Source: Macrostomum lignano (lineage: Eukaryota). Taken from it: 64,000 nucleotides of DNA. The notes below the pieces were generated by a model. It was given only the letters and a program-made list of their open reading frames with translations. It ran no database searches and was not told the DNA's origin. Positions within the stretch are counted from its first letter, which is position 1, and the number at the start of each line of letters is the position of its first letter. Both the position numbers and the translations under genes were made by a program. The stretch is from contig NIVC01000392.1 in assembly GCA_002269645.1 (NCBI GenBank), positions 496,001 through 560,000 on the forward strand, written 5' to 3'. Positions 1,341-51,916 of this stretch are shown one piece after another.

Positions 1341-1441
1341 ACAGATAATGTTAAAGCCATGCTTGCGTATAAGGTAAAAAATGTTCTAGTATGCGCTATT
1401 GCAAACAGTGCAAAGCCAATTAGCTTCTCAAATGCATTCAG

Positions 1442-3604
1442 CAGGACTGTCAGGCGCTGCGCTCCGAGCTAGCGAAACTGCGCTGTCGCCAAGAAGAGTG
1501 GCAGCAGACCATTGACGACTACGCTAAGCTGAAGAGCCAGTACAGCCTGTTAATCAACACTAGGGAGAGGCTGGAAGAGGAGCGGGACGAACTGCTCCGG
1601 CAGATTCAGCAACAGAAACAGGACAAAAATAAACAGACTGAGTCAGTAGTACGCTACAAGAAAAAGCCGAAGCTCAGCGAATGCGGCATATCTCTGGAAA
1701 CGACTGTCTTCAATGACTCCATTCGAGTAAGCCAGAGTGTGGACAACATGGGCTTCTGTGAGATGTTGGAGACATCGGACACGACAATGCGCTACAAGGA
1801 AGAGCCAGAATTGAGAGACTGCGCATCGTTCCTCGAAACATCCGTCATGATGGGATCTGTTCGAGTGAAACAAGAAATAGACGACATGGGCATCTGTGAG
1901 ATGCTGCTCACATCAGACGGGTCTGTACGCTACAAGGAGGAGCCGAAACTCGACGAGTGCTTCACATTCTCTGAGACCACACTCCTGGACGGCGCTATCC
2001 GAGTAGAGACACGTGTATTGGAGGCTGGAGTTCAAGTGAAACAGCCAGTCGTCGACATGGGCTTCTGTGAAATGCGGCTCACATCAGACGGGTCTGTACG
2101 CTACAAGGAGGAGCCGAAACTCGACGAGTGCTTCACATTCTCTGAGACCACACTCCTGGACGGCGCTATCCGAGTAGAGACACGTGTATTGGAGGCTGGA
2201 GTTCAAGTGAAACAGCCAGTCGTCGACATGGGCTTCTGTGAGATGCTGCTCACATCAGACGGGTCTGTACGCTACAAGGAGGAGCCGAAACTCGACGAGT
2301 GCTTCACATTCTCTGAGACCACACTCCTGGACGGCGCTATCCGAGTAGAGACACGTGTGTTGGAGGCTGGAGTTCAAGTGAAACAGCCAGTCGTCGACAT
2401 GGGCTTCTGTGAGATGCTGCTCACATCAGACGGGTCTGTACGCTACAAGGAGGAGCCGAAACTCGACGAGTGCTTCACATTCTCTGAGACCACACTCCTG
2501 GACGGCGCTATCCGAGTAGAGACACGTGTGTTGGAGGCTGGAGTTCAAGTGAAACAGCCAGTCGTCGACATGGGCTTCTGTGAGATGCTGCTCACATCAG
2601 ACGGGTCTGTACGCTACAAGGAGGAGCCGAAACTCGACGAGTGCTTCACATTCTCTGAGACCACACTCCTGGACGGCGCTATCCGAGTAGAGACACGTGT
2701 ATTGGAGGCTGGAGTTCAAGTGAAACAGCCAGTCGTCGAAATGGGCTCCTGTGAAATGCTGCTCACATCAGACGGGTCTGTACGCTACAAGGAGGAGCCG
2801 AAACTCGACGAGTGCTTCACATTCTCTGAGACCACACTCCTGGACGGCGCTATCCGAGTAGAGACACGTGTATTGGAGGCTGGAGTTCAAGTGAAACAGC
2901 CAGTCGTCGACATGGGCTTCTGTGAGATGCTGCTCACATCAGACGGGTCTGTACGCTACAAGGAGGAGCCGAAACTCGACGAGTGCTTCACATTCTCTGA
3001 GACCACACTCCTGGACGGCGCTATCCGAGTAGAGACACGTGTGTTGGAGGCTGGAGTTCAAGTGAAACAGCCAGTCGTCGACATGGGCTTCTGTGAAATG
3101 CGGCTCACATCAGACGGGTCTGTACGCTACAAGGAGGAGCCGAAACTCGACGAGTGCTTCACATTCTCTGAGACCACACTCCTGGACGGCGCTATCCGAG
3201 TAGAGACACGTGTATTGGAGGCTGGAGTTCAAGTGAAACAGCCAGTCGTCGAAATGGGCTCCTGTGAAATGCTGCTCACATCAGACGGGTCTGTACGCTA
3301 CAAGGAGGAGCCGAAACTCGACGAGTGCTTCACATTCTCTGAGACCACACTCCTGGACGGCGCTATCCGAGTAGAGACACGTGTATTGGAGGCTGGAGTT
3401 CAAGTGAAACAGCCAGTCGTCGAAATGGGCTCCTGTGAGATGCTGCTCACATCAGACGGGTCTGTACGCTACAAGGAGGAGCCGAAACTCGACGAATGCG
3501 CCTCATTTCTGGAAACGACTGTCTTCAATGACTCCATTCGAGTAAGCCAGAGTGTGAACAACATGGGCTGTTGGAGACGTTCACATGGGCTGTTGGAGAC
3601 TTAA
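1442..3604 (+). CDS. Probable terminal exon: coiled coil followed by 47-aa and 57-aa tandem repeats; unknown protein
   Basis: The ORF frame extends upstream to a CAG acceptor at about 1441 (in-frame stop at 1421-1423). It encodes QDCQALRSELAKLRCRQEEWQQTIDDYAKL...RERLEEERDELLRQIQQQKQ, then 171-bp units starting at 1880, 2051, 2222 ... 3419 (9 full plus 1 partial). Confidence 0.7.
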   Translation, partial: QDCQALRSELAKLRCRQEEWQQTIDDYAKLKSQYSLLINTRERLEEERDELLRQIQQQKQDKNKQTESVVRYKKKPKLSECGISLETTVFNDSIRVSQSVDNMGFCEMLETSDTTMRYKEEPELRDCASFLETSVMMGSVRVKQEIDDMGICEMLLTSDGSVRYKEEPKLDECFTFSETTLLDGAIRVETRVLEAGVQVKQPVVDMGFCEMRLTSDGSVRYKEEPKLDECFTFSETTLLDGAIRVETRVLEAGVQVKQPVVDMGFCEMLLTSDGSVRYKEEPKLDECFTFSETTLLDGAIRVETRVLEAGVQVKQPVVDMGFCEMLLTSDGSVRYKEEPKLDECFTFSETTLLDGAIRVETRVLEAGVQVKQPVVDMGFCEMLLTSDGSVRYKEEPKLDECFTFSETTLLDGAIRVETRVLEAGVQVKQPVVEMGSCEMLLTSDGSVRYKEEPKLDECFTFSETTLLDGAIRVETRVLEAGVQVKQPVVDMGFCEMLLTSDGSVRYKEEPKLDECFTFSETTLLDGAIRVETRVLEAGVQVKQPVVDMGFCEMRLTSDGSVRYKEEPKLDECFTFSETTLLDGAIRVETRVLEAGVQVKQPVVEMGSCEMLLTSDGSVRYKEEPKLDECFTFSETTLLDGAIRVETRVLEAGVQVKQPVVEMGSCEMLLTSDGSVRYKEEPKLDECASFLETTVFNDSIRVSQSVNNMGCWRRSHGLLET
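1880..3500 (+). repeat. Coding tandem repeat, 171-bp (57-aa) unit
   Basis: GTCGAC/GTCGAA anchors are spaced exactly 171 bp apart and the units are nearly identical. Confidence 0.95.
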
Positions 3605-8820: not shown

Positions 8821-9634
8821 TAAGATTATTTCTCGATCCAGGGATGCTTGCTATTTACTGATTCTTGCTATGTGCAGGATGCTTGCTATCTGGGTGGATG
8901 CTTGCTAGGAGTATTAGGGGATGCTTGCCTTCTGCGATTGCTTACTTTTGGAAGGGATGCTTGCTACTGGGGGGATGCTTGCTGTCTTGGAAATATTTTC
9001 TATTTAGGGGTAATGTTTGTGATCTTTGTGAAAGCTATATATTTTTGTCTGTTTGTTGATTATAGAAAAAAAGAGATTTATAGCAAATATCATTGTCCGT
9101 GACAATTTTAGATGAAAAAGATGATTTTTAAAAGTGATGAAAGACTTGGTTTTTAAGAAAATGTGCTTTTTTAATTGTTTTCCATAAACTATTTTTGCTT
9201 CGTGCTTATTGGGTGCCCCGAAAGGGGGCCGCACTAGATTGCTAGTACTTTACTAATGACGATGACATGTACTTGTAAGATATTTTAGTTTTTTAAAATT
9301 CCTAAATTCTTAAAATTTTTAAAATCTAAAAATATTATTTATGGTCAGTTTCAGGGTAATCGCAAAATTGTTTGCAGAATTTTTCCCATAATCAACCATC
9401 ATGAAGAAGGAATTAAAATAGTTTCACGCATTTTCGATTAGCACTTTCAATCCGGAATCATATATTTCACTTTCTGCCTAGCCTGTGCACTTGATTCACG
9501 CATGGACATCTGTAGTTAACACAGCGCCAAATAAAAAATTACCACAGACAGTCTCAGGACTACTAAATGACTTATTAAGGAGCGATTTTGGAGGTGAGGT
9601 GGGTGTCAACCCTCCTCGCCTCTCATTGGCTGGC

Positions 9635-9935
9635 GCCCCGATCACTAGGTGATCGATACGCGTATCGATATCGGCGCTCGGCGCGCACCCGCCGCAGGCG
9701 CATCCCCCGATATGTACGCCGCAGGTGACCCTTCTGAGCCGCAGGCGCCCCTCCCGAGCAGTAGGGGACCCTCCCGACATGTTGTACCCCGACATGTACA
9801 CCGCAGGCACTCCTCCCGACATGTACGCCGCAGGCGCCCCAAACCGAAGGTACACTTTCCCAATATGTGTGTACACTCGCCCAATTTATGTGTACACTCT
9901 CCCGATATGTGTGTACACCGATATATAGTCAGAGA
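9635..9935. repeat. Nested palindromes plus CCCGACATGTACRCCGCAGG / ATATGTGTGTACAC repeats beside the Polinton-like module
   Basis: Perfect 18-bp palindrome ATCGATACGCGTATCGAT at 9652-9669 and GATCACTAGGTGATC at 9640-9654, followed by short imperfect direct repeats at 9705-9925. Confidence 0.7.
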
Positions 9936-9948
9936 TAATAACACAAGA

Positions 9949-10907
9949 TTAGGCACTACTTATAGTTGATGAAATGAAGGCCGCAGAGGCAGCAGAGACG
10001 GGCGCAGCAGTGGTCAACTCCTCAACGGAGACCTCAAAGAGGGCAGCAGAGGCAGCGGTCAAATCAGAGGCGGCAGCAGCAGGGGCACCGTTCACAACCT
10101 CTCCGATAGCCAGTAGAGGGAGGTTGAATACTTCGGACTCAGTGTCGCTATCAAAGGCAGTGGCCCATGCCAAGTACTGATCCGCTTCCCAATTATCAGG
10201 TCCGTTGTTTTCAGTGCCTAGGGGGATTATATGTTCGGGGATTTCCCCCTCGAGCGAGGTCAACCCTTCAGAGGGGCGATTATTATCCCAGAGGGTGGGT
10301 TAGTTAGGATTAGTTATTTGGGGAGCCCCACGGAGGGGGGGTGGCGCGAGCCAATAGGAAACTACCAGCGCCGACTCTCGTCAAACAGATTTTTCCAGGG
10401 CGAGGATTGGTAGGGTTTGAGACCCACAACCCGGAGAACGTCCTGGAGATTTTCCTCCTCAGTCCTGGCTACCGGAGAGGTCTCAGTCTTGGCTCGTTTG
10501 GCAGGTGGCGGGGCCTCGGCTGCCGGCTTGAAGAGCTTGTCCAAAAGGGCGGCAAACATAACGCGCCACAGTTCCGGCGTGAATTCAATCGTGTAGCGCC
10601 AATTAAACTTTGGATCCACGTTGAGCCAATCGTGCCGCAAACGAATCCTCCCTTGCGAAGCCTCGACCGCCTTGAAATTGCCTAGCCCGACCCTCTTGTC
10701 CACGTGAAGACGGGCAGCAGCTTCCAGGTCAGGGCGCGCAGACTCGAGCTTCTTCCACTCTGGCTCGCTTAAGTAGATTGCAGGGAAGCCGTCCTTTCAC
10801 ACTCCAGCCTCGTTGGTGTAGAGCCGCTAAATTTCAATTAAGTTGTGTTCGGTTTCCAATTTGGGCTTCCGCGCCAAAAAGTTTTCGTGTAGAGAGATAG
10901 AAGACGT
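9949..10907 (-). pseudogene. Disrupted gene with two PC4-like (p15, ssDNA-binding) domains and an acidic/Ala-rich tail
   Basis: One frame reads LIEI*RLYTNEAGV*KDGFPAIYLSEPEWKKLESARPDL...RIRLRHDWLNVDPKFNWRYTIEFTPELWRVM, resembling the PC4 pattern IR.Y....G....GISL...QW..L twice. Stops at 10829-10827, 10799-10797 and 10302-10300, a probable 2-nt slip at about 10372, and ACG at 10907 where an ATG would be expected. Confidence 0.5.
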
Positions 10908-10956
10908 GATTTAGCAGCAGCAGCAGCAGAGAGCTCTCTGACAGCCGTGCAGCACC

Positions 10957-11081
10957 TTATATACCCCTCCCGGATGGAGGGTGGGGTGAGGGTGAATTTG
11001 GGGGTGATTTTTGATTATTTTGGTTGGTTTTTGACGATTTGACCAATAACAGGCGAGCTGAGCTGGTTTTGAGTATATATA
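10957..11081. promoter_or_regulatory. Putative bidirectional promoter between the PC4-like gene and pPolB
   Basis: TATATAA on the minus strand (10963-10957), TATATATA on the plus strand (11074-11081) and CCAAT at 11043-11047, lying between divergent ORFs. ATG at 11142 and a GTAAGT donor at 11204. Confidence 0.45.
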
Positions 11082-11758
11082 CAGACCCCCAGAACAGGGA
11101 TAGAGAGATAATCCTTCTCTCTCTCTCAAGCTCTATGCAAAATGGCTAAACGCACACGCAGCATCAACTGCTTTCCTGGCTGATAAGAGGCAGCGTCTTT
11201 ATGGTAAGTTTTAATTAAATTCTGGCCAGTTGTTTATCAGTCTAAACGGGTTTCGAGTTGCAGGGGTGCTGCAGCAGGGTACCGTTTAGAATCGGTCTGT
11301 GGCAAGAGGGGCTAGCTAGGGGAGCTGTCTAGACAAGTTTCAGCAGGGTGGCTGCAGAGAGTTTCCAGGTCGGATAATAGATACGACAGTTGTGCGGGGG
11401 CCAACAAAGACTTTACTGGGGCTGTTGCGGTTAGGGTGCGGTGCAGGCCGGACTAGACAAGTTTCAGCAGGGTGCTGCGACAGAGAGTTGCCAAGGCAGG
11501 CCAGACAGGTGGGGCTGTTGTTATTTTTTGCAGGTGGGGTGCTGATAGGAACTTGCGGGGACTGGGGCTCCTGCGATAGAGTTGGGAGGGGTGCCGCAGA
11601 CTAGACTGTGCGCGAGATGTGGTTGCTGGGGTGCGCGTGGGGTTAAAAAATAGCTAGCTTGTTTCAGCAGGAAGGTTGACGCAAACAAAGAGCAGGCTGC
11701 GAGCCCGGGGTGCTAGAAAGTGAATGATTTTTCTTTTTTTTCTACTTGTTTTTTTCAG

Positions 11759-14700
11759 ATGCGTTTGTCCCGCCTGCCCAACCTGAATCTGTTACCGGAC
11801 CGGGTGAGTTATCTAGCCCCCCCATTCCCCAGACAGACCCTAGCTGACTCACACTCCCCTTCATTCCACACAGGTTTTACGGCCTGCCTGGACAGCTAGC
11901 GCGAGCTGCCAAAGTTTAGGACAAAGGGTGTGGAAAATGTGGTGAAGTTAGACGACACTAGTGATTTACGCGAGACATTCGCTAGTATGCTCAAGGTGTT
12001 TAAGCAGGATTTGGCTGGGGATGATTTTATGGCTGCAAAGTTTGAGAACGACAACATGCTCAAAGCGGCGCATACTCCTCCGGTGCGTGCATCCCGCATG
12101 ACAGCCGAATTGTTGTTTAAGCACATTGACAAGATTGTGCAGTCTGATGCCACTGTCCTGACGAGCAACATTTCCATCCGTTTGCTAAAGGCCTGGGTGC
12201 CTCGGCGTGGCTGCTCCCTTGAGAACAAGCATCTGGAGGAGCGCCATGCTTTCTCGCGCCACTATGACCGCATCACCAACATGAACAAGAGGTGCCTGCT
12301 GCGGGCTTTGGTCGTGGCCTGCGCCTATCTACAATTTGTGGCCAAGACAATCACCAAGCGGTTGTGGCAGACAATCAAGGCGAATTCACCAACCCAGACT
12401 AAGCTGGTGGCTGAGCTAAAAATCGATGCCGGGCTCTACACTGTAGGTTGTGCACTGATTTGCATGGTATTTTTACGATAAGGATTGCTAAAAAAAGAAA
12501 TATTTTACCCCCTACACAGACTCTTCAAACTGTCTCGCAGGCTGGCCCTTTTGGAGTGAATGTACTGCCCGAGGCGATCCGGGCCCTGAACCGCTTGCAT
12601 CCCGGCCACGACTTTGGTGTACGGGTGTACAGGGCAAAGAAGGCAAACAGGTGCATCTATGAGCTGCCGGGCACCGAGATTCTGCACCTGCACCTGGTTG
12701 AGCAGCACTATAATGTGATCACCAAGTTGCCAGCGTTTTTCGGCTCTATGCACTACTGCTCTAAGTGCGAGATGACCTACGACTTCACCAACGCCAAGTA
12801 CAAGTGCGTCGACGCCTGCAGCACATGCAAGACCCCTGGCTCCAACTGCAAGGCCAACCGCGCATATGTGAGATGCCATGATTGCGGGCTAAATTGTCAT
12901 AATGCTCAGTGTCTAGAGAATCACAAGCGCAAGAATAAGGCGGGTAGATCTCGCTGTGATTCAGTCTAAGTTTGCGGCACGTGTGGCTATCTAGAAGAGC
13001 TAAAAGTAGGCCATTCCCCCGAGCATCAGTGTGGTCACGCCAAGTGTCCAGTCTGCGAGCAGTACGACGAAACTGCCACCCACTAGTGCTTTGTCACCCC
13101 ACCCAAAGCCAAAGAGTCTAGCGCCCCGTACCTTTACTACGATTTCGAGACGTACGTTGACTCGAAAAAGCAGCACCGGGTTCACTTGGTCACAGCAGCC
13201 ACATCGTGTGAGGCGTGTCCCAAACTCTTCTCCAGCCCCCGCTGCAGCGCGTGTGGGGGTTGCACAGCTCGGCCAATTGCATTGCGGGGCGCGATCTGGC
13301 ACTCAATTTTACTGGCTGTCTCCCACAATGACTGTGCTTGCGGGATGCGAGAGTTTGTTTCGGTTGGGCCGCACTCTATTGATGCCTTTTACTGCTGGCT
13401 GACTAGTGTGTTCAAGCAGGGGGCTATTGCTTTTGCGCACAATGGCTCTGCGTATGACGCATTCCTCCTGCTCGGAGACCTACTCAACGGACTGGCCAAG
13501 AAGAAGCCTTAAGTGATCTTCCAGAATAGCCGCCTAATGTACATGAAGAGCGATAAGATCGTATTCAAGGACAGCCTCAGCTTCATCCCTATTGGTCTGG
13601 CGCAATTCCCAAAGGCGCTTGATTTGGGCACCCAACTGACCAAAGGAGATTTCCCGCACGTGTTTAACCAACCGCAAAACTGGGGCTACGTGGGGCCTTA
13701 CTGCTCAATTGAAATGTATGGCGGGAAGAAGAATAAACAGCACGACTCCATCGCTGACTGGCTGGCCAAGCAGGAGGGCCGAGTGTTTAATTTTAACGGG
13801 GAGTACTTGGACTTCTGTCTGCAGGGCACTCTAATTTTGCGGGAAGGCTGTCTAAAGTACACCCGCCTGATTAAGGACATTTGCGGACTGGACGCATTTG
13901 TCCAATCCAACACCATTGCGGGCTTGGCCATGGCAGTATTCACCACCAAGTTTATGGAGCCCAACACTCTTGGGGTGATTTCCCGCCGGTCAGATGTGCA
14001 GTCGTACAAGGCGCGGTGCTGGCTTGCACATTTGAATGCAACCGAATTTGGCGGCCGGTTGCAGACAGCCGACTCTGGCGGCGAGGCTTTCGCCATGGGC
14101 CGAAAGGTGGACGGCTTTGACCCGGAGACTAGGACAGTGCTCCAGTTTCATGGCTGCTTCTACCATGGCTGTCCCAATTGCTTCCCCAACGGCGACGTGC
14201 TGCACCCGCTCAAGAACCAGCCAATGCGGGCAATTGATGAGGAAACTGAGCGCTTCACTCGGCTGCTCTCCACCGCCTACAATATGCGTGTCCTGTGGGA
14301 GCACGACTACCAGGATGAGGGAGCGCCAGTCTAGCCTCCTATTCGCCTGGAGGAAGCCCTGTTTGGCGGCCGCACCGAGGCTTTTGTCCCGCACGCCGAG
14401 GCCACCGAGACTGTGGAGCTGCGCTATCGGGATGTGGTAAGTTTTTTTCAAAATTTTTCATGTACACTTTTCAGATTATTACTTTTCCTCTCTCTAGGTG
14501 TCGCTCTACCTGACTGTCAACAAGTTTGACAAGTACCCTGTCGGGCACCCGGTTCACCACCCCGAGCCTCATCTACTGGATGAGCAGCAGCTGGTCCGGT
14601 ATTTTGGTATTGCTGAGGTCTCAATTCTGCCGCCAACCAATCTCCACATTCCGCTGCTGCCCGCCAAGATTAGCAAGAAGCTGGTTTTCGGCCTCTGCCG

Positions 14701-14812
14701 CGTCTGCATGGAGACCCAGTGCAGCAGCGAGTGTACACGCAACGACGCTAAGAGAATGCTCCGCGGCACGTGGTCGACCCCAGAGCTCCACAAAGCCCTG
14801 CAGTTGGGCTAC
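11759..14812 (+). pseudogene. polB: Protein-primed family B DNA polymerase of Polinton/Maverick/adintovirus type; intron-containing, nonsense-disrupted and 3'-truncated
   Basis: vOTU-like Cys (NKRCLLRALVV) and His (EQHYNVI), Cys clusters, ExoI YDFET, ExoII AHNGSAYDAF, KDSLSFIP, KGDFPHVFN, a VSR-like insert (KVDGFD...FHGCFYHGCPNC), LFGGRTEAF, motif A YRDV|VSLY and YPVGHP. Introns at 11804-11873, 12443-12519 and 14437-14497. Motifs B and C are absent. Confidence 0.9.
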
Positions 14813-14899
14813 CTGGTATCTCACCCAGGTTTCTAGCTAGCCAGGTGTATTCCACCTAGGATTTTACTAGGGATGGTTCGGTCGTTTACATAGGTGTTC

Positions 14900-15085
14900 T
14901 TTGGCGATATATCATCAAGTATCAACTATTATCTCAACCTGATATCTCAACTTGGTATCTCAACTTGGTATCTCAAACTGACATCTCAACCTTGTGTCTC
15001 AACCTGGTGTCTTAATCTGGTATCTCCATCTGGTATCTCAACCTGGTATCTCAATCTGCTAATTCAATCTGGTATCTCAACAGAT
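14900..15085. repeat. Degenerate 13-bp tandem repeat (TGGTATCTCAACY)
   Basis: About 10 copies. The same motif (CTGGTATCTCA) appears at the polB breakpoint, about 14813. Confidence 0.75.
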
Positions 15086-15149: not shown

Positions 15150-18100
15150 CACCTGGAAATGCCCATGCACGCATGCTGAGGTCACAGCCATCGGCGCCAA
15201 GGGCCGGTCTGGTCTGGTCACCCAGCCGGGCGTGGACCTGCCGCCAGGCCGTCTGGCCGAATTCGCCACCGATTTCGGCCAGGGCACCACCAATCGGGTC
15301 CAGCAGCTCCTTATCGAACTGGGCCGCTCATCGTCGCTGGACGCCACCCTCAGCGGAGTCTGCATCCGGGAGGCTGGGAACTGGCTGGCTAGCGCCATCA
15401 GCACCAATTCTGATGGCGGCTGACGGCTATTCGACGCTGGACAGCCTTGGAGTTCGGCGCCGCGTCCGAGGCTGGCGCTGTCTGTCACGACGTGCCGTTG
15501 GATCGCGACCTCCGGGTGGTTGATTACGTAATCGGAGTGAGGGAGTTTCTAATCGGAGGGCTTGGAGCCTCGACCGCCTAAAATTTTCACCGTGGAAATA
15601 CAGGTGGGAGTTAGTGATGATTAGAAATTTTAGACACAGAGGCCTCAGACCTGTTAGACACTGAAGCTTCACACCTGTCAGACACTAAAGCCTCACACCT
15701 GTCAGACACTGAAGCCTCACACCTGTCAGACACTGAAGCTTCACACCTGTTAGACACTGAAGTCTCACACCTGTTAGACACTGAAGCTTCACACCTGTTA
15801 GACACTGAAGCTTCACACCTGTTAGACACTGAAACCGTTCACGTGTCCACCTGTCAGGGCCGTCACGGCAACACCGGTCCTCGCTCACTCAGTCCCCGGG
15901 CCCTCCTACGTGACGATTTCGGTCACCGACCCGGCGGCATGGACACCTTCCTGGTGACCGCGGTGTACGTCGGCCCACCGCTTCGCTTGACCATCGCGCT
16001 GGACGTCAGCGACTCGTCCAACGCCACCACCGACGACGCCGCCGCTGAAGTGCCCGACGCCGTCTCCTGGCCAATCGACGCGGTTCTCCTTCGCGAAGGC
16101 CAGTTCAATCCATACGAATTCCGATTCGAAGTCGGTGGCGGCGTCGCCAAGCTGACACCGAATTCGGCCAGCCTGCAGCTGCGGGATGCTCAACGGGTGC
16201 CAGCGACTGGCGACCTCTCCGGCCTTGCCGAATTCCCTCGAACCACCGGCAGGTTCAACGTCGTTCTCCACGTTGGTAGCGTTGGCTGGTCGGGCCAGTC
16301 GAAAGATTGCCGGCTGCGATTGTCGGCTAGCGGGACCGCCGTGCAGACCGGCACGCATCCGCAGGAGCTGCTCCTGGCCGCTGAGCGAGGCCTAGCCAGT
16401 TATTCTGTCCACCGATTTCTGCTGGACTTGGACGAGATTGGCGAACTGACGCGACTCCGCCTAGACCTGAGTGGAAGTCCGGAGGCTCGTCTGGAGGTGA
16501 CCAAACTTCGGCTGTCCGATGCAGGTGAGGCTGACGATTTTCTCTACCGTTTGATCTGACAGCAAATTCATAGCGAAAAATCCAGAATAGAGCAATCTTA
16601 CAGTGTGGAAGCCTAAAAAAGACAATTCTAAAAAGGGGAATCCTAGACGGAATTGTCAAAGAGGAAATCCCAAAGGGGAATCCCAAATCGGAAAACCCTA
16701 CATAAAGGAATCCTGAGGAGGGGAATTCCAGATAAACTAATCCCAGATTGAGGAATCCCAAAGATGGGAATCCAGATTGAGGAATCCCAAAGAGAAGAAT
16801 CCAGATTGAGAAATCCCAAAGAGGGGAATCCAGATTGAGGAATCCCAAAGAGGAGTATCCTAGATAGAGGAATCCCAGATTGGGGAATCTCGAAAATGAG
16901 TATCCTAGATACAGGAATCCCAGATTGAGGAATCCCAAAGAGGGGAATGCCAGATTGAGGAATCCCAAAGAGGGAATCCCAGATTGAGGAATCCCAAAGT
17001 GGGGAATCCCAGATTAAGGAATCCCAAAGTGGGGAATCCTAGATTAAGGAATCTCAAAGAGGGGTATACTAGATAGAGGAACCCCAAAGTAGGAAATCCC
17101 AGAGATGGAATCCCGAAAAGGGGAATCCCAAAGAAGGAAATCCCAGATGGAAGAATCCCAAAGAGGGTAATCTAAAAGAGTGGAATCCAACGAGCGATAG
17201 TTTAAATCAGTGGAGTGGGATCCTATACCTGTTTCATTCAATCCTAAGCATTCCGCAAACGAACGATTTATTGCAGGCTCAAGCGCCGAGTTCTTTCTGC
17301 CCGTGAATCGAGTTCTCGCCAGCGGCGAATCCGTAGAACTGGCCGCCAATCGGCCGGGCGTGCCGCAGCCTCGAACCCTGGCCTACCAGGTCAGCCTCCG
17401 CCTAGGCAAAGCGAGAAACTCGGCCGGTTCGGGCGATTTAACCGCCAACTCGCTCGCCCTGACTTTGCACGGCGATTTGGGCGAATCCGGCTCGATGCCA
17501 CTGCCGCCGAGTCACCAGCCGTTGACGCCCGGCCAGACCATTCACGCTCGGCTGAACTGCCTCTCCGTTGGCCAGCTGTCCGGATTGACTATCGGACACG
17601 ACTGTCCCGGCCGGGGTCAGGGTGTCTATATCGATCACGCGACTGTGTCCTACTCGGATCCGACAGTCGTCACAGTGTACTTCCCGGCGAGGCGGTGGCT
17701 GGACGCCGGCTGGGGCGACGGGTTCACGCAGGCAACCCTCAGTCAGCCGTCTGACGATGCGGCAGCTTGCTCCGAGTCCGATTGGCTGCTCGAGATTCAA
17801 ACAGGTAAAAATAATAAGAGCTCTGGAATTTATTATCAAGTTGAATCTCCTTCAGAAAAGATTTTCCAGAGATCCAATTAAATTTCCTTTCCACTTCTTC
17901 GCCACTCAGACACGACCGCCGAAGACTCGGAAGCTGCCTCCGCCGCCCTGGAGTCAGCCGCTTCTGCTGGTCGACTTCAGGTTCGACTGCACCCAAAAGT
18001 CGGCGCCGATGGTCGCGCCTTCGTAACAGAGATTGGCAAAGCGACAAAGGATGGCGAAGAAGACGAACCCGCCGATGAATCATCGGATCACGATGAGGCA

Positions 18101-19425
18101 GACGAGTCAAATCCACCGATGCTGCTGACGCCGCTGGCTGCAGACTTGACAGCTGAGCACACAGCGGACCAAAAACAGCAATCCACTCGACGTTGCCTGT
18201 TAACCTTCAAAAGGCGAGTCGATGCGGACAGTGATGACGACGTCGGTTCGCTGACGTTGATCCTGCAGCCGCCACTCGACCGGTCGATTCGCGTTGCTGC
18301 AGTCAGTCTTGCGGAGAGTCGCTACAGTCGCTGGTGCGTGAAATTCCGACCGACTCCTGAGGGTCAGTCGTCGCCATTGTCGTCGGCCGAGCTGACGGAG
18401 CAGCTGCGCCTGGCAGCATCAAGTCCGACGGAGACGGCCGTGGAGAAGTTTCAACCTGTTGCAGAATCATCGGAACGAAGCGCCGTCACATTCGGTCAAT
18501 GGCGCTTGGAAACTTGGTCGTCGGCAGCCGCGGACGATGCCGATGCAAAGCTGCCACCAGGCTGGATCGAGTTTTTCAGCAGCGGCGACGTGTCGAGCGG
18601 CCGGCTGCCGTTGACTGGACTGCCTGGTAATGGTCGAGAAGAATTCCTTGTTAGTTTTGATCCCGTCACGGTCCACGAAGTGTTCAAGGTTCGCCTGGGA
18701 CTGGAAGAAGCGACCGAGACGAGCGGTGGAGGCGTTTGGAAATTCGACAGGGTAAGTTCTGGTGAAGGATTCTAGAGGGTAGCTAATGATTTTAAAATTG
18801 TGCCTAACAGCCAGCCAAATCAGCCAAAATTGTCAGCGGCACTAAACAACCAATCAACTTCCTTGATATTTGACAGATCCGACTTCAAGACCGGGACACT
18901 ATGGACACGTTCGCTTCAGCTCAGCAGCATCAGCAGTCGCTAACGCCCGGCGACTGCATCGAAGTTCAAGCCGACTGGCCGGGCTCTCGCCTACTCGACA
19001 CTGTCGAATACGAAGTGGCGCTGAAAGTTGGCGCCGGCGCCAATTCCGGCACAGCCGGCGGCGTCTTCGTAAATTTGCGCGGCACCGTAGCTGGCGAAGA
19101 GAATACTTCGAACGGCCCCGGTTACGGCGGCTCAACTGGTGAGCGGCTGCTGGCAAGGGGTCTCGCCACGGGCCAGGAGGTTGTTCGTCGATTCCGGTCG
19201 CTTCGCCTGCTGCCAAGCGTTGGCCGAGTGAGCCTTCGCTGCAACGCCACCGGGCCCGGCAATGGAATCTTTGTTGAGCGTCTGACAGTTCGACTTGTTT
19301 CAGGCGACGATAATAAAAAGCTGACGTTCCCTGTGCACCGCGGTCTAGACGAGGGCGACGAAGACAATCGGCTGACCATCGAGTTGTTTCCAGCAACCGC
19401 GGCTTCGACTGCAGGAGCAAAATAA
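15150..19425 (+). CDS. Multi-PLAT/LH2 domain protein (LOXHD1-like); 5' part missing or damaged
   Basis: In-frame spliced exons 15858-16524, 17277-17804, 17910-18751 and 18877-19425 with canonical GT-AG sites. PLAT motifs include YQVSLRLG...LTLHGDLGESG...GQLSGLTIGHD...YFPARRWLD and YEVALKVG...VFVNLRG...IFVERLTV. The upstream PLAT-like fragment 15150-15530 has an in-frame TGA at 15421-15423. Confidence 0.8.
15640..15835. repeat. Intronic 24-bp minisatellite (CACACCTGTYAGACACTGAAGCTT)
   Basis: About 8 copies immediately upstream of the acceptor CACCTGTCAG at 15857, which has the same core. Confidence 0.9.
16640..17170. repeat. Intronic minisatellite of about 30 bp (GAGGAATCCCAGATT / GAGGAATCCCAAAGAGGG)
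   Basis: Repeated AATCCCAGATTGAGGAATCCCAAAG blocks. Confidence 0.85.
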
Positions 19426-37429: not shown

Positions 37430-40400
37430 TTAACAATTGAACTTACCAATGAGCTGCCGCAGTACGATGTTCTGCGTCCGACCGCCTGGGGCGCGCACCT
37501 TGACGCCCGATGCACTCCGCGCACGACTCAGAGCCACGTAGAGCTGGCCGTGCTGAAAGCAGCCCGTCGTCAGGTCGACGGCGTAGGTGCTCAGCGATTG
37601 GCCCTGGCTCTTGTGGATGGTCATGGCGAAGCATGGCCGGATTGGAAACTGCAGGCGGCGGAACGTGAAGGGCAGCTCAGCAGGACTCGGCTCCTGTGGG
37701 ATTCGCGGGATGAACACCTGCCGCCCACGGTAGATGCCAGTGGCGACCTCCGCGAGCAGCACGTTGTCCCGCAGCTCACGCAGCAGCAGCCGGGTTCCGT
37801 TGCACAGCAGCGGTGGGTCGAGGTTCCGCATCATCATGACCGGCATGCCGACCTTGAGCTCCAGCCGGTGATGCGGCAGGCCGTTGGGATCAAGTCGGTT
37901 CAGCAGCTCCGGTGTAAAATTGGTAGCTGCCACATCGTCGTTTGGAATTGAATCGACTGATAGATAAACCCGACTGTCTCCAGGAAAGAGCGCCAGGCAG
38001 GCGGCGTTGGTCTCGTCTACCGTCCTGTTGAGCGGCGACAGAATGCTCCGCTCCGCGAACATCTGGTCACGGTGCGGGCTTGGCTCGAACGACGGGTAGA
38101 CGCGCCGGATGAGCTGCTCAGTGGTTGTGTCATCAGGCATGAGAATCTCGCTAGGCAGGGAAACCATGCCCTCTTCGTCCTCTGGTAGCTCTCCGTTGCC
38201 AACCTAATGGAATTGAGGAATAAAAGAGACATTTCACGTCATAGAGTTAGTTATTTAGTCTCTGTAAGCATGCAGAAATCGATTTAGAAGAATATTGTAC
38301 ATATTTTGAAATTTGTTTTGGAACGTAGATTATGAATGAAAAGCATTAATTTGAAACTTCGTGCAAAATAGTGAAGGAATTATTTTCTCACCTGCATAAG
38401 AAAATCTGCGTAGCTTTTGGCATCAGAGTCGCTCTCGAGCCGCAGATTTCTGGTCAAGTGGTGCTGCTGGAAATGCGGCCACAAAGCCGACTGAGTCAGG
38501 CAGGCGTCGATCGTGTTCGCCTGCGTTCCTCCGGGCACCACAGCCAGCAGCTGGCGGAAGTCGCCGGCTAGCACCAGCAGCGCTCCTCCGAACGGCTGCT
38601 CGACCCGCAGCAGATCTCGCAGAGACCGGTCCACGATCTCCAGGTCCTTGCGGTGCGTCATCGGTGCCTCATCCCACACGATGATTCGCGCATTCCGCAG
38701 AATCTCTGCGAGCTTGCTCCGCCTGCCGATGGAGCAGAAGGCATTGTCTTGCCGAACTGAGCAGACGGGTATCTTGAACCTGGGCGGAGAGGATGAAAAT
38801 TCGGGTTGAACAGCAAAGCTCGATATGAATTGATTAGGAAACGGAAGCCGCTAAAATATGCAAGCAAAAGTCACAAAAAGTGCCAGCAAAGCAGAAATAA
38901 AATAAAAAAAGGCGGCTCACATTGAATGTGCCGTCCTTCCATCGGGAAGAATGGTCGCCGCAATTCCAGACGATGCCACCGCTACAGCAATCTGACGCTT
39001 CGCTCGAGCAGAATTAAGCAGAAGCGTCAGCAAGAATGTCTTGCCCGTGCCGCCGGGAGCATCGATAAAGTACAGACCGCCACCGCCGGCCTGCATGCTG
39101 GACTGAATGGCGTCGAAAATGGCCCGCTGCTCGCCAGTCAGGGTGCCGATTTGCACCATGACTTTTGCCTGGAGCTCAACTGCTTCTTCGTTTGTCGGCA
39201 GGCACTCAGTAAGTCGGTGGGTCTGGGAAAGAGAAAAGAAATTGCTTATAGAAGATTTTGTTTATCAGTTCTGCATTAAAGCTGCACTCTATAGCCTTCC
39301 TCAATAGTAAAATTTTCATATTACGTGATTATTTTTTCCGCATAAATGAGTACTCGTAAGAAATGAAATTACAGAAATAATGCTTTCATAAGAATAAGTG
39401 CACTTACCTGATCCGGCTCTACCCGTGGCTTAGGCAGGCCGTAGGCAGGCAGCTCAGATCCTCCCATGGTCTCCAGAAAGTTCTCCAGTTGCCGCAGCAC
39501 TTCGACTCGGCAGCTTCGGTGCTGTAGCCCTGGTGCAGCAGGTCGCCAGCCATGTCACTGGAGAACTCGCGCCACAGCTTCGGTGGATCGCTGGGGTCAC
39601 CATGGGTGAGAATTGCCGCGAAAAGCCGGCGCAGAGCTGCTGGCAGCCGCGTCTCCACAGCCTCGCGCATGCACAGCTGCCAGTGCTTGTCGTCTTCCAG
39701 CAGCCCTCTCGCCTGGCAAGCGGCCTTGAAGGTCGGCAGCAGGACGCCGTCAACAGTGCGCAGCGCCTCGAATGACGTCGGGCCGCGCACGTTCACCAAG
39801 AGCAAGCGCAAGTAGAAGCAGTCGCCCATCCGAGGACTGACTGTGTAGATGCGGCCGATATTGCCGGTCGTCAGAACGCCAGCTGGCTGACCGGCAGTCT
39901 CTCGGCCGCGACCTGCGCGATGCCAGGTGTGCGCCCTGATGTCCCAAGTGAAGTGCCGGGGCACCTCTTGGTAGAGCAGGCCTCGGGCGACTTCATCTTG
40001 GCGACAGAGCTGGCAAGGTGTATGAATGTGTCATGATATGAATTCTCGTATTATAGTAAAAAAGCGGAGTAATGTTGACTGCTTTAATTAACTTGAAGCA
40101 TTCTAGTATAAGCATTGCCTATAGTACACTATAGTACATTACTATAGTAATGCTGGAGATATAAGCAAAAGCAATGGTTGGCTGAAAGACTTACATCAAA
40201 GAAGGCGGTCAGAGTCGTGTCTTTAGGCCGAGCAGCAACAGCCTGGGCCGTCTCGCGAGTGAAGAAGACCCGCTGCTCGTCCTTCAGATGGACGGCGAGT
40301 CTGATCACAGGGGGTATCGGCTGTGCACTTCAAAGCCCAGGATCGTATTGACCGCTTCCATTGGACCGATGTACCTGCCCAGAAGGTAGTCCTTGATCTC

Positions 40401-43400
40401 GTCAACCATCTTGCCGTGCGCCGACTGACCGACAGTAGGGGCAGTAGTGCTGGCTGACGCAGATGCAGCCTCTTGTCGGACTTGATAGGCAGCCATATCG
40501 CTACCCTTGGTGATGTACTTTACGACATACTTGATCGCCTTGACTGTCGCGCAGATCTCGACATTAAGGTGACAGCGAAACTCGCGCAGCAGCGCTGGGC
40601 AGTACGGAACCACCCAGCGATTGTCGAAGGTGAAATTCGCCTTCTGACCGCCGCGCAGCTTGGCCATCTTTGTCACCGAAAAGCCGCCCACATCGACAGA
40701 TCTGCGGCAGTAGTGCGGGTAGCCGCCTTCTTCAACCCTAGTGGCTGCTAGGAATGCCCTCGGGTAGCGTTTGCTGCAGACCCCGTTCTCCATGCACGGC
40801 GCTCCCGGGTTGAGCTGCTGGCCACACGGACCATGCAGCAGATTCTCGGCGACCAGCTTGTGCAAGTCCGCGTCGGAAACTGGGTCCGGGATCTCGGCGC
40901 TGATGATTGAGTCGTACTGGTCCGGCTTTAGCTTGTCGGCCAGCCACAGCAGAGCGTGCACGTGGGGAAGACCTGGATGTGGATAAAATTTAATTTTATT
41001 GAAATTAACGAAATTTTGGAGGCGACAGATAATGCTACAGTTTAAAGCTTAAAAGTACACTTGCCTCGCTTCTGGTACTCCAGCGAGCAGACTCGAGCCA
41101 GAGTATCTCCAAACAGACTCTTTAGCCTGTTTAGGAAGGCCTTCTTCTTCAGCTCGAACACCCGGGCGGTGATGTCCGGCCGATCGACGGCAGTCTGGCC
41201 CGGAAGCAGCTTAGCCAGAATCTCGGGCCACTTGGGGTTACACGTCATCGTCAGGAACAGGTCTGGGCGGCCATAGGCGTGAACGTATGCCATGGCATCC
41301 TGCTGACGCTCAAGACGGTAACGTGGGCCTCCGACGTAGCTGGAGGTCAGGACGATATGCTTCCCGACTTCTTCCGAGTTGCCGTCGTCCTCGTGCAGCG
41401 CGTCTCGGAGACCACGAAGACTCTCGGACTGCAGGTCTTTCTGGTGCTGCCGAATGTACGTAAGTCGCTCGGACTCGATCTTGGCAGCCTGGTCCACCAG
41501 GTACTGCTGGAAGAGCCGGCGACCGTACAGCATGCTGTTGAACTGGCCTGGCCGAACCTGAATCATGAAGACGTAGAACTTCATGTTGGTGATGCCGCGA
41601 TCCTGCTTGAGCCCAATGTGCCAGCCGTCCTCACCGAAGGGGAATAGGAGCACATACTCCAACGGATCATAGGAGCGGTGGGTCTCGCAGATATCTTGCA
41701 GGCCTGCGAATGAGTAAAAATAGAATTAGGAAGTAATGGAGGAGATAATCAAGAATCTTTAAAGATTAGCTCTAGGGGAGAATAAAATTTTACCGCTCCT
41801 ATAAAGTAATTGGAGGTACTTCATAGATGCCATAATTGCTGTAAATTAATAATGTGCCTGTCGATGCCATAGAACTCACCACCATCTCTCAGACGCAAGA
41901 TCACATCCCGTCGCTGCGCCTGAATTACGCCTTCATCATCGCCAAGGTCCGTTAGGATGCCAACTTCACTGCACTCGGGCAAGTTGAAGCGCCGGACATG
42001 CTCCCCAGATGGGCGGGCATCTGAGTTAATCACGACCTTGGCGTTCTGCAGCTGCGGATCGCTGCGCAGCAAGTCGACTGCGGACTGGAAGCTGCGCACG
42101 TAGCTGTTGCAGTCGTGCAGAGTTGCCTGCAGTTCCGCCAGCAGACGGCTGTTCAGCCCGGTGGCCCACTGTAGTCGAGCTTGCTGCTCCTCGTCTACAA
42201 AGAAGACCTGGCAGAACCGAGCCGGGTCCCCCGGGTTCGGCAACAGGCTGCCGATCCGATGGTGCATCTGACCATGGAGGATGAAGCTCAGGTTCCAGCC
42301 GGGCTGCTCTCGCTGTGCGGCACCGAGAGATGTCATGTGGAGGGCGCCGTTGTACTTCCGAATGTCCTTGAGGAACTGCGAGCTGTCCGGATGCTCGCCA
42401 GTCAGCAGTCGCTTCAGGACATCAAGCGGATCACGGCGCGGCTCCAGGTGGGTCTGCCGGTGGGGTTTAGAAAATTCCTCATCTTAAACAGGTTATAAAA
42501 ATTACGGCATGGCAATCAGTAAAAAACTAAAAAATGTACCATTTGCATGCTCTTGCTAAAGTATTCATTAAGTTGTCACGTTATTTGATGTTGGCCGTGA
42601 CCCTTAAAAGGGCCGTTTTAGTCCCAAAATAAGTTGAAGTCAACTCAGGCGAAGTGGATGGTGTAGCGGAGCACTTGGCGATAAAGGCAGGAAACTGCCG
42701 TAGTCGTTTTTATTATCAATATAAATAGTAAGTTTGGTTGTCACTGGCAAATAACAAACTATTGCTTTCTGGGCACTGGCGGCTGCAACAATGGTTGAAT
42801 AGAATTTGGATACGAAGTCAAGTGGCAGGCGAATGACACAATGGCGATGTGACGTGAGCAGAGGCTATGAGCACAGTGAAGGCAGTGAAACGTAGTGGCG
42901 AGTTTGGCGTCGGTCGTGGCGTGAGACAGTCAAGTAAGTGTGTGAGCAGGCTGGCCCAGGCAGAGGGGCCGTGGCGAGAAATAAGGAGGCTCGAGGCAGC
43001 CAGGCAGGAACGCAAAAACACACACACGGCCAAGGACAGACAGGGAGAAGCGAGAGAGAGAGGAGAGGAGAGAGGAGTGCCCGCCGCCAGGCGGGGGGGG
43101 GGTTTAATAAAGGAGCGCAGAGGGGGGTAGCGCGAAGCACGAGTGGTTTCATTGGCTGGCGAGAGAACTTAAAATTATCGATCGTGCCAGTTTTATACGG
43201 TCGCGAGAGAGGATAGCAAAATATACAGTGAATTAGAAATTGCCACAAAATCGTTGGGCACTACTACAAGTAAACGTCGCAATAAACGAATGGAAAAGTT
43301 TAGTTGAAACGGTGAAACTGAAGGGTTGAATGACTATGGAGAACAGCAGTCCAACGGCCCTTTTCGGGACCACCTTAAACTGACAACGTCACAAAGTGTC

Positions 43401-44466
43401 TAAAGCTTCATGCCATTGATAAAGTAATCAATAAAATGATCAATAAAACTGATTATTAAAACTGGACTCACCTTGCCAGAGTGGCAGCAGATGCTGGCTG
43501 GCTCGTCATTCCAGCGTAGCGCGCCGCAGTGCGGACACTGACGGTCCATGCGGCCGAGGACATGTGGCTAGTGTGCCAATTCCAGTAGTCTGAGATGCAA
43601 AAAAACGCTAAATGTAATTATGAGGATCATTTAAGTAAAGATGCTGAATGTGGATATAAAGTCCCATTACGCTAGGAGCCTTCTACGTAAAGGTTGTAAT
43701 GTATGGGCTACAAAAATATACATTATAAAGGCTTATAATCTATCTTATATATACTAATTTTGACGTGTTGTTTGTCCGATAAGAAGTAATAATAAACTAA
43801 TTTTAATAATAATAATAAGAACTAATAAAAAAGAACTAATAATAATTATCATAGAATATTAAACACAGTAAAAGCATTGATGTACATTGTAAAATAAAAA
43901 AATGAGTGAAACGCCTACCTGTCTCGGCGCCGGTCTGCTTACGCATGCAGACGCAGGTCGTGCTCATCAGCGGCCTCAGCCGTGCGAAGCTGACTCTGTC
44001 GCTGCCGCTGCACGTCAAGGCGATGCATGTGGACCGTCTCCGATTCACTCGCGCGGCATTCCGCTGTGTGCTGCCGGTCCTGCTCGAGGCGATGCTTGCG
44101 CTCGGCCTCGCCCTCAGCTGCGCGGTCTTCAGCTGTTCGCAGCCGGTTCTGCTCGAGGCGATGCTGGCGCTCGGCCTCGCCCTCAGCTGCGCGGTCTTCA
44201 GCTGTTCGCAGCCGGTTCTGCTCGAGGCGATGCTGGCGCTCGGCCTCGCCCTCAGCTGCGCGGTCTTCAGCTGTTCGCAGCCGGTTCTGCTCGAGGCGAT
44301 GCTGGCGCTCGGCCTCGCCCTCAGCTGCGCGTCTTTCCGCCTGGCAAAGCCGATTCTGCTCCAGGCGTGCTGCATGCTCCTCTGGTGTCTCGGAGTCCCT
44401 CCGCTTCTTGGCACCAGCTGCAGCGCGTGTAGAGCGGGACAAATTGCCTCGACCGCGTTTAGGCAT
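37430..44466 (-). pseudogene. Helitron RepHel (STPR-like repeats, Zn finger, HUH Rep, Pif1 helicase); 9 exons, disrupted
   Basis: Exons 44466-(43942 or 43919), 43589-43472, 42453-41880, 41703-41065, 40972-40195, 40009-39408, 39222-38921, 38779-38392 and 38203-37430. Motifs PDLFLTMTCNPKW, EYQKRG|LPHVH, YVVKYITKG, DAPGGTGKTF, WDEAPM, GDFRQ, FAMTIHKSQGQS and HGQLYVALSR. TAG at 43570-43568 and frameshifts at about 40310 and 39503. Confidence 0.95.
44075..44350 (-). repeat. Coding 69-bp (23-aa) STPR-like repeats in the RepHel N-terminus
   Basis: AEGEAERQHRLEQNRLRTAEDRA three to four times, preceded by ETPEEHAARLEQ. Confidence 0.85.
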
Positions 44467-44789
44467 TACAAAAAAAGGAATATATTTGAAGAAAATATTT
44501 TAAAAAATATTGAGAGGCGATTGAAACAATCCGGCCAAGTGTGGATCGGTGGTATCGAAACAAAACGTGACTTTAAATAAAGCAATTAGCTGTCCTGTGC
44601 CTGCAGCTTTGCGTCACTAAATCTCCACTTCTCTACACCAAGTGTACAAACATCGCTTTGATGAGTAAAACTGCTGCCTAACCAACCAATCAGCGGACAG
44701 TTTTCTGTGGACTAAATTTTATCTTATCTTAAATGTACATACAGACAATCGATTTAGTTTATTAATTTAGGATTCACCAATGACTATGC

Positions 44790-49310: not shown

Positions 49311-51916
49311 GAGTACAATCTTTGCGGAAAGTTCAAAGTATGGAAATAGTTTTTCAAATGCTGTGCTTTTTCTTTTCATATTTAAAGCAAACAACTTATA
49401 TCCCCGAACTCAGCGTTGCAAGATCTTTCCAGCAATATAAGTATCTCCTCTCAAAGTTTAAAACTCGAGGAACAGTTAGCGTTTGAAATTTCCCAATTTC
49501 CTGACTGCTTGACTGAGAGGCTCGCAAGTTTGTTCATTGAATTTCATTGCCAAGCTAATACCAGGGCCGATAATAAAACCAATTGAATCTCGACACAGTC
49601 TATCTATTTACACTGTACAACTGCTATGTACACTAAGCCCAAGCCCTACCCCCGTTCTGGGGAAACCATTAAATTTAACTCAACCCCCAACACGCGGTGG
49701 GTTTTATTTGCATTGAACGCAGAACACGCGCACCCACCACCCCTCAATACACAGCGGCCCGCGGGCGGAGGTTGGGGTGGCTATTTTTACAAACTGGCTG
49801 CAGCCCCAGTCAGAGTGACAAAAGAAGGTTATTGGGGGTCAAAAAATCAGTTTTCTGCTTTTTTGAGGATCACTAAAATTGATGCAAATTTTCAGCTCCA
49901 AGCAGAAAGAGGGGACAATTAAGATTATCAAAGGTCAAAACCGCCGTTTTCTGCTTTTTTAGGGATCTTAAAAATTGAAAATGAAAGATTAAAATAGCCT
50001 AAAGCCATCCTCGGAAAATTTGCCGTTTTCCCATATAAGTTTCAAAGCTGACTTGCAAGTATTCTAGGAGGAGTTATGCAACAAACACACACACACACAG
50101 ACAAACAACGCACCAACTTTAGTATTAAGAGAAGACGAGACGATAGGGATCTTAAAAATTGAAAATGAAAGATTAAAATAGCCTAAAGCCATCCTCGGAA
50201 AATTTGCCGTTTTCCCATATAAGTTTCAAAGCTGACTTGCAAGTATTCTAGGAGGAGTTATGCAACAAACGGACAAACAGACAAACAGACAAACATCGCA
50301 GCAGTTTTAGTATTAAGATATGCAACAAAGGGACAAACAGACAAACAGACAAACATCGCAGCAGTTTTAGTATTAAGATAGAGACGAGGCCAACTCCTCC
50401 TTCGGAGGAGAAAGGGGAAGAACTCCCATCACCGGAATTCCATTCTCTGAAATTCATCAGCTGAATCCCATGACCCGAATCCCAACATCCAACTGTTATC
50501 CAAATCCATCAAAATCCTCTCCGTGAAACTGAACACCATCGAAATCCTCTCCGCAAAACAGAAATCCTCTCCGTGAAACTGAAGAACATCGAAATCCTCT
50601 CCGCGAAACAGAAATCCTCTCCGTGAAACTGGACTCAATCGAAATTTTCTCCGTCAAAAAGAATAAAATATCAGGATTCATTGGTTAGGGTTAGGGTTGG
50701 GGTTAGGGTTTGAGCTGCACAGAGCTGCGACTACAGAGCCCGATAAAAAATTGAGCTAATTGAATGTATAGATTGCGCAATTTATTTCTCAGTCAGTATC
50801 AGTTTCAGTGTAAGTTAACAAAAATACTGCGCAATCTAAATCAACCCTCCAATACACAGCGACCGACCCCCCTTTTCAATACGCAGTGGCAGATAGAAAT
50901 TGAAGCCTCCCCCGCCTAACTGCTCGGGGGTCGGTTGAACGCCATTGAACCCGAAAATGAGTACAATCTTTGAAAATTGTTTGTTGGATGCTGTGCTTTT
51001 AGTTTTCATATTTAAAGTAAACAACTTATATCCCCGAACTCAGCGTTGAAAGATTTTTCCAGCAATATAAGTCTTCTCTCTCAAAGTTTAAAACTCAAAG
51101 AGAATTTAACGTTTGAATGATCCCGTTTTAAAGCATTGAAAAATCGAGTGTACGTGCACTGCGTACTAAAGAGGCTCGCAAGATTATTCATTCATTTCAC
51201 AGGCTGGCTATAACACAGGGCTGCCTATTGAAAGGCAGAGATAATAAAACAAATTAATGGCGCAATCAATTTCTCAGTCAGTCAGTAGCAGTCTCATTTA
51301 AAATGATTACGCAATGCAAATCAACTCTCCAATACACAGCGACCGCACCCCCCACCACCACTAAAGCACACTGAGTGGTATAGTCCGTTTGTTAGAGATT
51401 GAAGCCCCTAACTTTATCTATTACGTCTGCAAAAATGAGCGCAATCTTTGCAGAAAGTAAAAGTATAGAAATCGTTTTTCGAATGCTGGGCTTTTTCTTT
51501 ACACATTTAAAGCAAACAACTTATATCCCCGAACTCAGCGTTGCAAGATCTTTCCAGCAATATAAGTTTAAATGATTTAAAATATTTATTTAAAATGATC
51601 GCGCAATATAAATCAACCCTCCAATACACAGCGACCGCACCCCTCCCCCCCCACTAAAGCACACTGAGCAATTAGAAATTCAACCCTCGAACTTTATCTA
51701 TTATGTCTCGCAAAAATAAGCACAGTCTTTAAAAAAAGTTAAAAGTATGAAAATAGTTTTTCGAATGCTGTGCTTTTTCTTTTCACATTTAAAGCAAACA
51801 AATTATATCCCCGAACTCAGCGTTGCAAGACCTTTCCAGCAATATAAGTCTCTCCCTTCAAAGTTTAAAACTCGAGGAACAGTTAACGATTAAATTTTTC
51901 TGATTTAGAGCATTGA
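49305..51916 (-). mobile_element. Family A Helitron-like copies with internal duplications
   Basis: Junctions at 50135/50136 and 50384/50385, duplications of about 180 bp and 60 bp, and a TTAGGG array at 50685-50710. Confidence 0.7.

Follow-up and report, generated by a model that had tools for sequence, protein, structure and literature searches.

The locus described here raises the question of whether a protein-primed DNA polymerase gene of Polinton type can carry introns that depend on the spliceosome of the host, and whether such introns are passed on within a mobile family. The locus lies in a stretch of 64,000 nucleotides of Macrostomum lignano DNA (contig NIVC01000392.1, positions 496,001 to 560,000), which is called the window below; coordinates are those of the window. 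In our reading, which taken as a whole we consider very probable, positions 9975-14812 (4.8 kb) are what is left of a dead Polinton/Maverick-type element that has lost both ends and belongs to a multi-copy family, and this family encodes a spliceosome-dependent protein-primed polymerase (pPolB).

The pPolB is of the alpha (group-2 Polinton) type. Pfam, the tree and a fold match all identify a protein-primed family B polymerase of PF03175 type, and the domain scan, tree and fold agree with the first-pass annotation, which had described a group-2 Polinton polymerase with vOTU and VSR-like domains. The domain order is terminal-protein region, vOTU, exonuclease, VSR and palm; the names of the first two domains follow the accessible part of PMC11161782, and these two have no separate fold match. 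The N-terminal region aligns with that of relatives (hhalign, 97.9%). The cysteine and histidine motifs of vOTU were found by a motif scan in the window and in both subfamilies of sibling copies (see below), and exonuclease motifs I-III and a VSR-like motif are present in the window. The best matches of the fold of a sibling gene model (P0004, pLDDT 75) were adintovirus PolB (1e-20) and phi29 polymerase; a single-sequence fold of exon 3 (pLDDT 39) was uninformative. In a FastTree tree of 62 sequences, a clade that unites the Macrostomum sequences with P0058 has support 1.0 and a stem of 0.99 and nests inside the alpha-type pPolBs, the class defined as alpha adintoviruses in PMC8502044. The sister group of this clade differs in a shorter alignment, and is thus unstable between trees. 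P0058 is a 185-aa Logan protein with 57% identity to the window; it groups with subfamily B and probably comes from another species or subfamily. Like alpha adintoviruses and group-2 Polintons (PMC8502044; PMC8097293, in the part accessible), the M. lignano family has OTU together with a PF03175 polymerase and is multi-copy in an animal genome. Furthermore, the VSR-like insert lies between exonuclease and palm, as in the pPolB2 of marine nematode and mollusc Polintons according to the accessible text of Jeong et al. (PMC10748475). The idea that this insert is an alternatively spliced cassette, prompted by 12 gene models that skip from NTLG, was rejected: no such joint was among those listed and contig X16-23 reads through. 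The window copy does not possess intact motifs A, B and C, and its core reading frame is not intronless.

Three GT-AG introns interrupt pPolB on the + strand, at the same junctions and with the same lengths as had been annotated at first pass. Intron 1 is at 11804-11873 (70 nt, phase 1). Intron 2 (12443-12519, 77 nt, phase 0) lies within vOTU. Intron 3 (14437-14497, 61 nt, phase 0) divides palm motif A between YRDV and VSLY, again as annotated, and Pfam PF03175 matches flank it on either side. The GT-AG ends and the pyrimidine-rich acceptors are features of U2-type introns. By chance alone, a given pair of positions would carry GT and AG with a probability of 0.0032 per junction, or 0.022 if 3 nt of slack is allowed. 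Two of the three introns are AT-rich (GC, 0.35 and 0.26, versus 0.52-0.58 in exons), two have a length that shifts the frame, and stops in some frame are present in each of the three. No repeat similarity was found among the three introns or between them and the rest of the window; because they are not repeats of one another, a mobile intron family (introner) was rejected in the window. Group I or group II self-splicing introns and inteins were also rejected, since the segments are 61-77 nt in length, possess GT-AG ends and break the frame.

Splicing was checked by comparing contigs from four of the 24 listed sequencing runs (X2, X11, X13 and X16) with the window at 80% likeness. X11, X13 and X16 were taken as RNA by guess, and X2, which is unlabelled, was used as the DNA control; the material is contigs only, with no levels. 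The 77-nt intron is skipped by contigs of X13 and X16, which come from two studies, and the 61-nt intron is skipped from GT to AG by contigs of X11 and X13, which come from one study. At the 70-nt intron, one X13 contig leaves at 11805 and resumes in exon-3-like sequence. Among the joints listed (15 of 18), none of these skips occurs in X2, whose contigs cross introns 1 and 2 as well as the putative intron 0 described below. It should be mentioned that the skipping contigs stem from sibling copies, not from the window copy. Read-through contigs at intron 3 were found in X11, which has both forms, and in X16, which has read-through only among the rows listed. Intron 1 is read across in 8 of the 16 gene models of subfamily A; the other models do not contain the scan pattern. 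We conclude that the three introns are genuine and very probably spliceosomal.

A fourth, larger intron (intron 0, 11204-11758, +, 555 nt) probably precedes them. Both its donor (GTAAGT) at 11204 and its T-rich CAG acceptor at 11758 had been pointed out previously, and both are present. This GT-AG segment has stops in all three frames, and sibling contigs match both flanks but match the interior poorly. None of the joints listed (15 of 18) is its spliced joint. The donor, which is in phase 1 and fits the acceptor at 11758, would belong to a probable first exon at 11111-11203 (+), whose in-frame stretch is without ATG in the window copy; siblings vary by indels at 11120-11133. As a separate observation, two in-frame acceptors lie 21 nt apart at 12520-12540. 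The contigs use the first, at 12520, which adds 7 residues absent from subfamily B models, and a shift of the acceptor is possible.

The remaining exons, all on the + strand, show how far the window copy has decayed. Exon 2 (11759-11803, 45 nt) has 93% identity to sibling gene models. Exon 3 (11874-12442) encodes the terminal-protein region and the vOTU cysteine motif. Exon 4 (12520-14436, 639 codons) encodes the vOTU histidine, a Cys-rich region, exonuclease I-III, the VSR-like insert and the first half of motif A. Exon 5 (14498-14812) matches PF03175 and is cut off at 14812 before motifs B and C. Removal of the introns restores the frame at the junctions, as had been noted, but does not restore an intact protein: five premature stops remain after splicing, at 11897 in exon 3 and at 12967, 13084, 13510 and 14332 in exon 4. 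Near 13260 and 13316, two small indels leave a stretch of about 19 codons in a different frame from that of siblings, and conserved positions in exonuclease III and motif A differ from those of siblings. Motifs B and C are missing; siblings have A, B and C. At 14812, sibling contigs of all four runs carry on in other sequence, and in the window a 13-nt minisatellite region (14813-15081) stands in place of the 3′ end of pPolB. The position 14812 was rejected as a further donor because the sibling sequence continues directly there. Judged from its sequence, the window copy is a dead, truncated pseudogene, which cannot supply an active polymerase. The earlier proposal that activity depends on splicing is thus not supported for this copy; the stops, the truncation at both ends and the partner gene had been missed. 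Directly downstream of the truncation is a host-type multi-exon gene with PLAT-like domains (15150-19425, +). A search of the window for the upstream exon belonging to the neighbouring host transcript found no match.

The nearest proteins are all M. lignano gene models, which account for 13 of the 35 matches in one protein search and for 15 among the 120 matches listed in another, with more in further searches; one representative M. lignano protein is 100% identical to the window. In the exonuclease block, these models fall into two subfamilies, with identities of 93-100% within A, 98-100% within B and 66-68% between A and B; the identity of the window to A is 84-88%. The models fuse pPolB to host exons of ADAM, synapsin and GH18. 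Therefore, the copies sit at different places. The siblings are numerous and young, and mobility of the spliced pPolB family is deduced from its copy number.

Relatives outside the M. lignano models suggest that the introns are inherited. In P0225 (JGI) and P0227 (Logan), the sequence sets in exactly with the second half of motif A and breaks off exactly with the first half of motif B. No other protein among the 105 non-Macrostomum matches listed has these ends; motif A is read through by 63 and motif B by 74 of the others. P0225 and P0227 nest in the Macrostomum clade (support 1.0) at 58-69% identity. Because the boundary is shared at this identity, the introns seem to be an inherited trait of the lineage. 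A subfamily B model, P0219, likewise begins at the acceptor of the motif A intron. In 43 proteins, breaks were counted at motif A (12 on the left, 3 on the right), at motif B (3 and 2) and just after motif C (4, with one point difference left out of the count, and 9), and those at motif A occur in both subfamilies; at four control words there was no break, one point difference aside. Intron sharing by subfamily B and the introns at motifs B and C are read from protein ends and gene-model breakpoints, and breaks in the models also fall at places without an intron (12 at NTLG, where contigs read through). Further introns are probably present at motifs B and C, in which case the full gene would have about six introns. 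The first-pass annotation had offered an intron-rich virus-like lineage as one option, and the boundaries common to the nearest relatives support it. It had added that the novelty would vanish if close relatives routinely had the same introns. The closest relatives do appear to share them, whereas distant relatives and published Mavericks do not.

Outside the clade, most relatives are single ORFs. We fetched 97 loci, dropped 5 duplicates and examined 92. Motifs A, B and C are contiguous in 77, 68 and 68 loci, respectively, although these counts are biased, as many of the loci are incomplete and the scan itself used motifs A and B as patterns. L044 is a complete single-ORF element with genes for ATPase, integrase, a capsid-like protein, protease and PC4. 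A long gap or a stop-containing insert was present in 14 loci, of which 10 were inspected, and 3 of the 92 have one intron of their own each. L079 (2410-2472, 63 nt) and L092 (982-1047, 66 nt) possess GT-AG introns in motif B of pPolB, a few codons from the Macrostomum breakpoint. They belong to a different clade with 42-47% identity to the Macrostomum group, and their introns apparently represent an independent gain. L094, a Polinton that also has genes for PC4, ATPase and integrase, shows an AT-rich intron-like stretch (GTGAGT...TTTCAG, about 2690-2790) at the start of the pPolB ORF. Given L079, L092 and L094, introns have apparently been gained in pPolB more than once. A metagenome scan with the Macrostomum alignment and viral-contig scans with P0041, P0014, P0042 and P0227 found no relative; a scan with P0225 confirmed 4 stretches and returned no locus.

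Upstream of pPolB and divergent from it is a PC4-like gene of the single-stranded-DNA-binding type (9975-10868, -), with 80% identity to model P0195. It has two stops near its start, lacks about 170 last codons and probably contains an intron (about 10299-10363); joints near 10298-10346 were found in X13 and X16. The assignment is based on a subfamily B homologue that matches PF02229 below the cut-off (E, 2e-4) and on an Atlas structure match to a PC4 cluster (TM, 0.76). BLAST against the PC4 protein of L094 gave no match, and an Atlas feature search gave no usable match. The complete relative L044 has a counterpart of this gene. The intergenic stretch (10940-11110) contains two outward-facing TATA-like boxes, at about 10957-10963 (-) and 11074-11081 (+), which may act as promoters. 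At the left break lies a repeat with 20-27-nt subrepeats (9536-9975), either a terminal repeat of the element or an unrelated repeat. The contig with the unique flank stops at 9565, and the summed depth climbs sharply. There is no second copy of this repeat in the window, where both ends of the element are lost, and no significant match to it in the tails of gene models, where it would be mirrored after pPolB. In the models P0011, P0040 and P0192, exons of the PC4-like gene and of pPolB are joined on one strand; this implies that neighbouring copies are nested or inverted, or else that the assembly contains artefacts.

No Polinton-type integrase, ATPase, protease or capsid gene matched in the window, where the fragment is broken at both ends. 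This is in line with the first-pass annotation, with the addition that two retroelement-type rve integrases, the only ones in the window, lie far from the fragment. Profiles of ATPase, major and minor capsid, integrase and protease also matched none of 33 M. lignano models, several of which are fused to neighbouring sequence on both sides. Terminal repeats and target-site duplications were not found for the spliced pPolB family. Thus, it is conceivable, but in our view rather unlikely, that the spliced family is a capsid-less replicon of two genes (pPolB and PC4-like), copied in the nucleus, with the integrase borrowed from intact intronless Polintons. Besides the profiles, this idea draws on the flanks of 21 model segments, which have only the PC4-like gene in common (the exceptions being ADAM exons of the host, a piece that resembles a LINE, and a match of 51 residues that is unexplained), and on P0005, which runs from ADAM exons through pPolB exons to ADAM exons. 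It also draws on Jeong et al. (PMC10748475, accessible part), whose lists for flatworm assemblies contain many pPolBs that are long single ORFs and lie close to integrases. However, gene predictors skip genes, genes on the opposite strand would stay hidden, the window copy is truncated, and canonical relatives such as L044 combine PC4 with all core genes. Two of the flatworm assemblies in that survey are presumably from M. lignano. A more specific proposal, which we consider unlikely, is that of a Polinton lineage which lost its virus module and became an element of two genes (spliced pPolB and spliced PC4-like) that copies itself wholly in the nucleus; each of the three catalytic motifs would hold an intron, and the one in motif A would serve as a switch under host control.

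If the family works as we propose, a divergent promoter would drive pPolB and the PC4-like DNA-binding helper, and host polymerase II would transcribe the pair. The spliceosome would then remove the introns, so that the family would make its polymerase only via host nuclear transcription and splicing, and the spliced mRNA would be translated into a terminal protein-vOTU-exonuclease-VSR-palm protein. Protein-primed replication with a terminal protein and vOTU cleavage is the established model for Polintons in the accessible part of PMC11161782. Accordingly to that model, vOTU protease would free the terminal protein, and the polymerase would copy the excised element from its ends. The introns would be inherited because copies re-enter the genome as DNA, and may have been gained once, on the long stem of the clade, before the subfamilies of about 60-70% identity diverged. 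In this scheme, splicing of siblings is directly supported; promoter, processing, replication and integration are deduced.

Three other readings bear on the same evidence. The motif A intron might be a regulated switch that stays in the RNA of most cells and is excised only in stem cells or the germ line, by analogy with the P element. Skipped and read-through contigs at intron 3 in the probable RNA runs fit this, and a precedent comes from the Drosophila P element, in its third intron (PMC7776569, accessible part). However, read-through could reflect DNA carry-over, pre-mRNA or dead copies in host introns, and the contigs carry neither levels nor tissue-specific evidence; we regard such a switch as quite improbable. 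We give still less weight to a long-endogenised or domesticated polymerase that gained its introns after movement ceased. The several introns, the long branch, a host-like GC3 (0.66-0.75, versus 0.61-0.63 in nearby host exons) and the window without partner genes would suit it. Nevertheless, two subfamilies have amplified separately, the PC4-like gene travels along, and the window copy is decayed; the many near-identical copies in unrelated host genes also disfavour the long-resident endogenised element suggested at first pass. A last reading, that the segments arose as chance insertions into a pseudogene and are never spliced, is hardly credible. The window copy is indeed a pseudogene, and predictors are described in the accessible part of PMC8097293 as calling large insertions in decayed Mavericks introns. 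Against this stand canonical ends at three places, the boundary common to relatives at 58-69% identity and, above all, the exact skips in sibling contigs, which largely refute it. The spliceosome-dependent family is therefore the reading that we retain.

The spliced pPolB is a variant of an otherwise known Polinton polymerase, and there is good evidence for its splicing and inheritance. In the accessible parts of PMC8097293 and Widen et al. (10.1101/2022.07.12.499685), the core genes of group-2 Polintons are intronless, and the former describes intact vertebrate Mavericks without introns; here, pPolB has at least three introns and probably about six. Group-2 Polintons also carry integrase and capsid genes, whereas none is linked to the spliced M. 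lignano family, as read from the fragment and gene models. Introns within a mobile Maverick do occur in nematodes, but, in the part of 10.1101/2022.07.12.499685 at hand, only in captured host cargo genes (wasp, krma), the core genes being intronless. Dinoflagellate eupolintoviral proviruses contain introners, spliceosomal-type introns within Polinton-like elements, which according to the accessible part of PMC12166617 are mobile, mostly post-integration and mostly outside coding regions. In contrast, the M. lignano introns have no mutual repeats, lie in the polymerase gene and are common to sub-lineages. Group I introns are reported in cryptophyte elements (PMC12220804, accessible part). The Drosophila P element is comparable in that host splicing is needed to make the key enzyme of a DNA element. 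That enzyme is, however, a cut-and-paste transposase with proven regulated retention (PMC7776569, same part), whereas retention here is hypothetical. The accessible parts of PMC5718144, PMC11296320, PMC5730564 and 10.64898/2026.10.13.758929 held nothing further on introns in a Polinton polymerase. Within a search that did not extend to Repbase, subscription papers and bioRxiv supplements, we found no literature on this family or on spliceosomal introns in an animal Polinton polymerase. Public gene models, which are unreviewed, already contain the splice junctions implicitly.

Jeong et al. (PMC10748475, accessible part) list 748 flatworm pPolB ORFs and set a minimum ORF length of 900 aa, a filter that the longest exon in the present gene (639 codons) would not pass. 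Because surveys demand such long single ORFs, spliced lineages escape them. Inherited introns in a replication gene would bind the element to the nucleus, a point of relevance to the question of whether animal Polintons are transposons or viruses in their way of life. They would also supply cases in which the gain of introns by mobile DNA can be dated. The recurrence in L079, L092 and L094 makes the single case less surprising and a general survey more valuable. Since M. lignano is a laboratory model with RNAi and transgenesis, splicing and its control are directly testable.

The rest of the window contains several other repeats and mobile elements. A Helitron Rep/PIF1 helicase gene is spread in several pieces over 37430-44499 (-), together with STPR repeats, and a second Helitron fragment lies at 54515-55009. 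An uninterrupted LTR-retrotransposon pol ORF of 965 codons (RT, RNase H and integrase) is found at 46435-49332 (-), and a further integrase fragment at about 2-300. A 726-codon ORF (1424-3604, +) consists of 9.5 near-identical 171-bp coding repeats. Short interstitial TTAGGG arrays occur at 55887, 59704, 61735 and 63916, in a repeated unit of about 2 kb.
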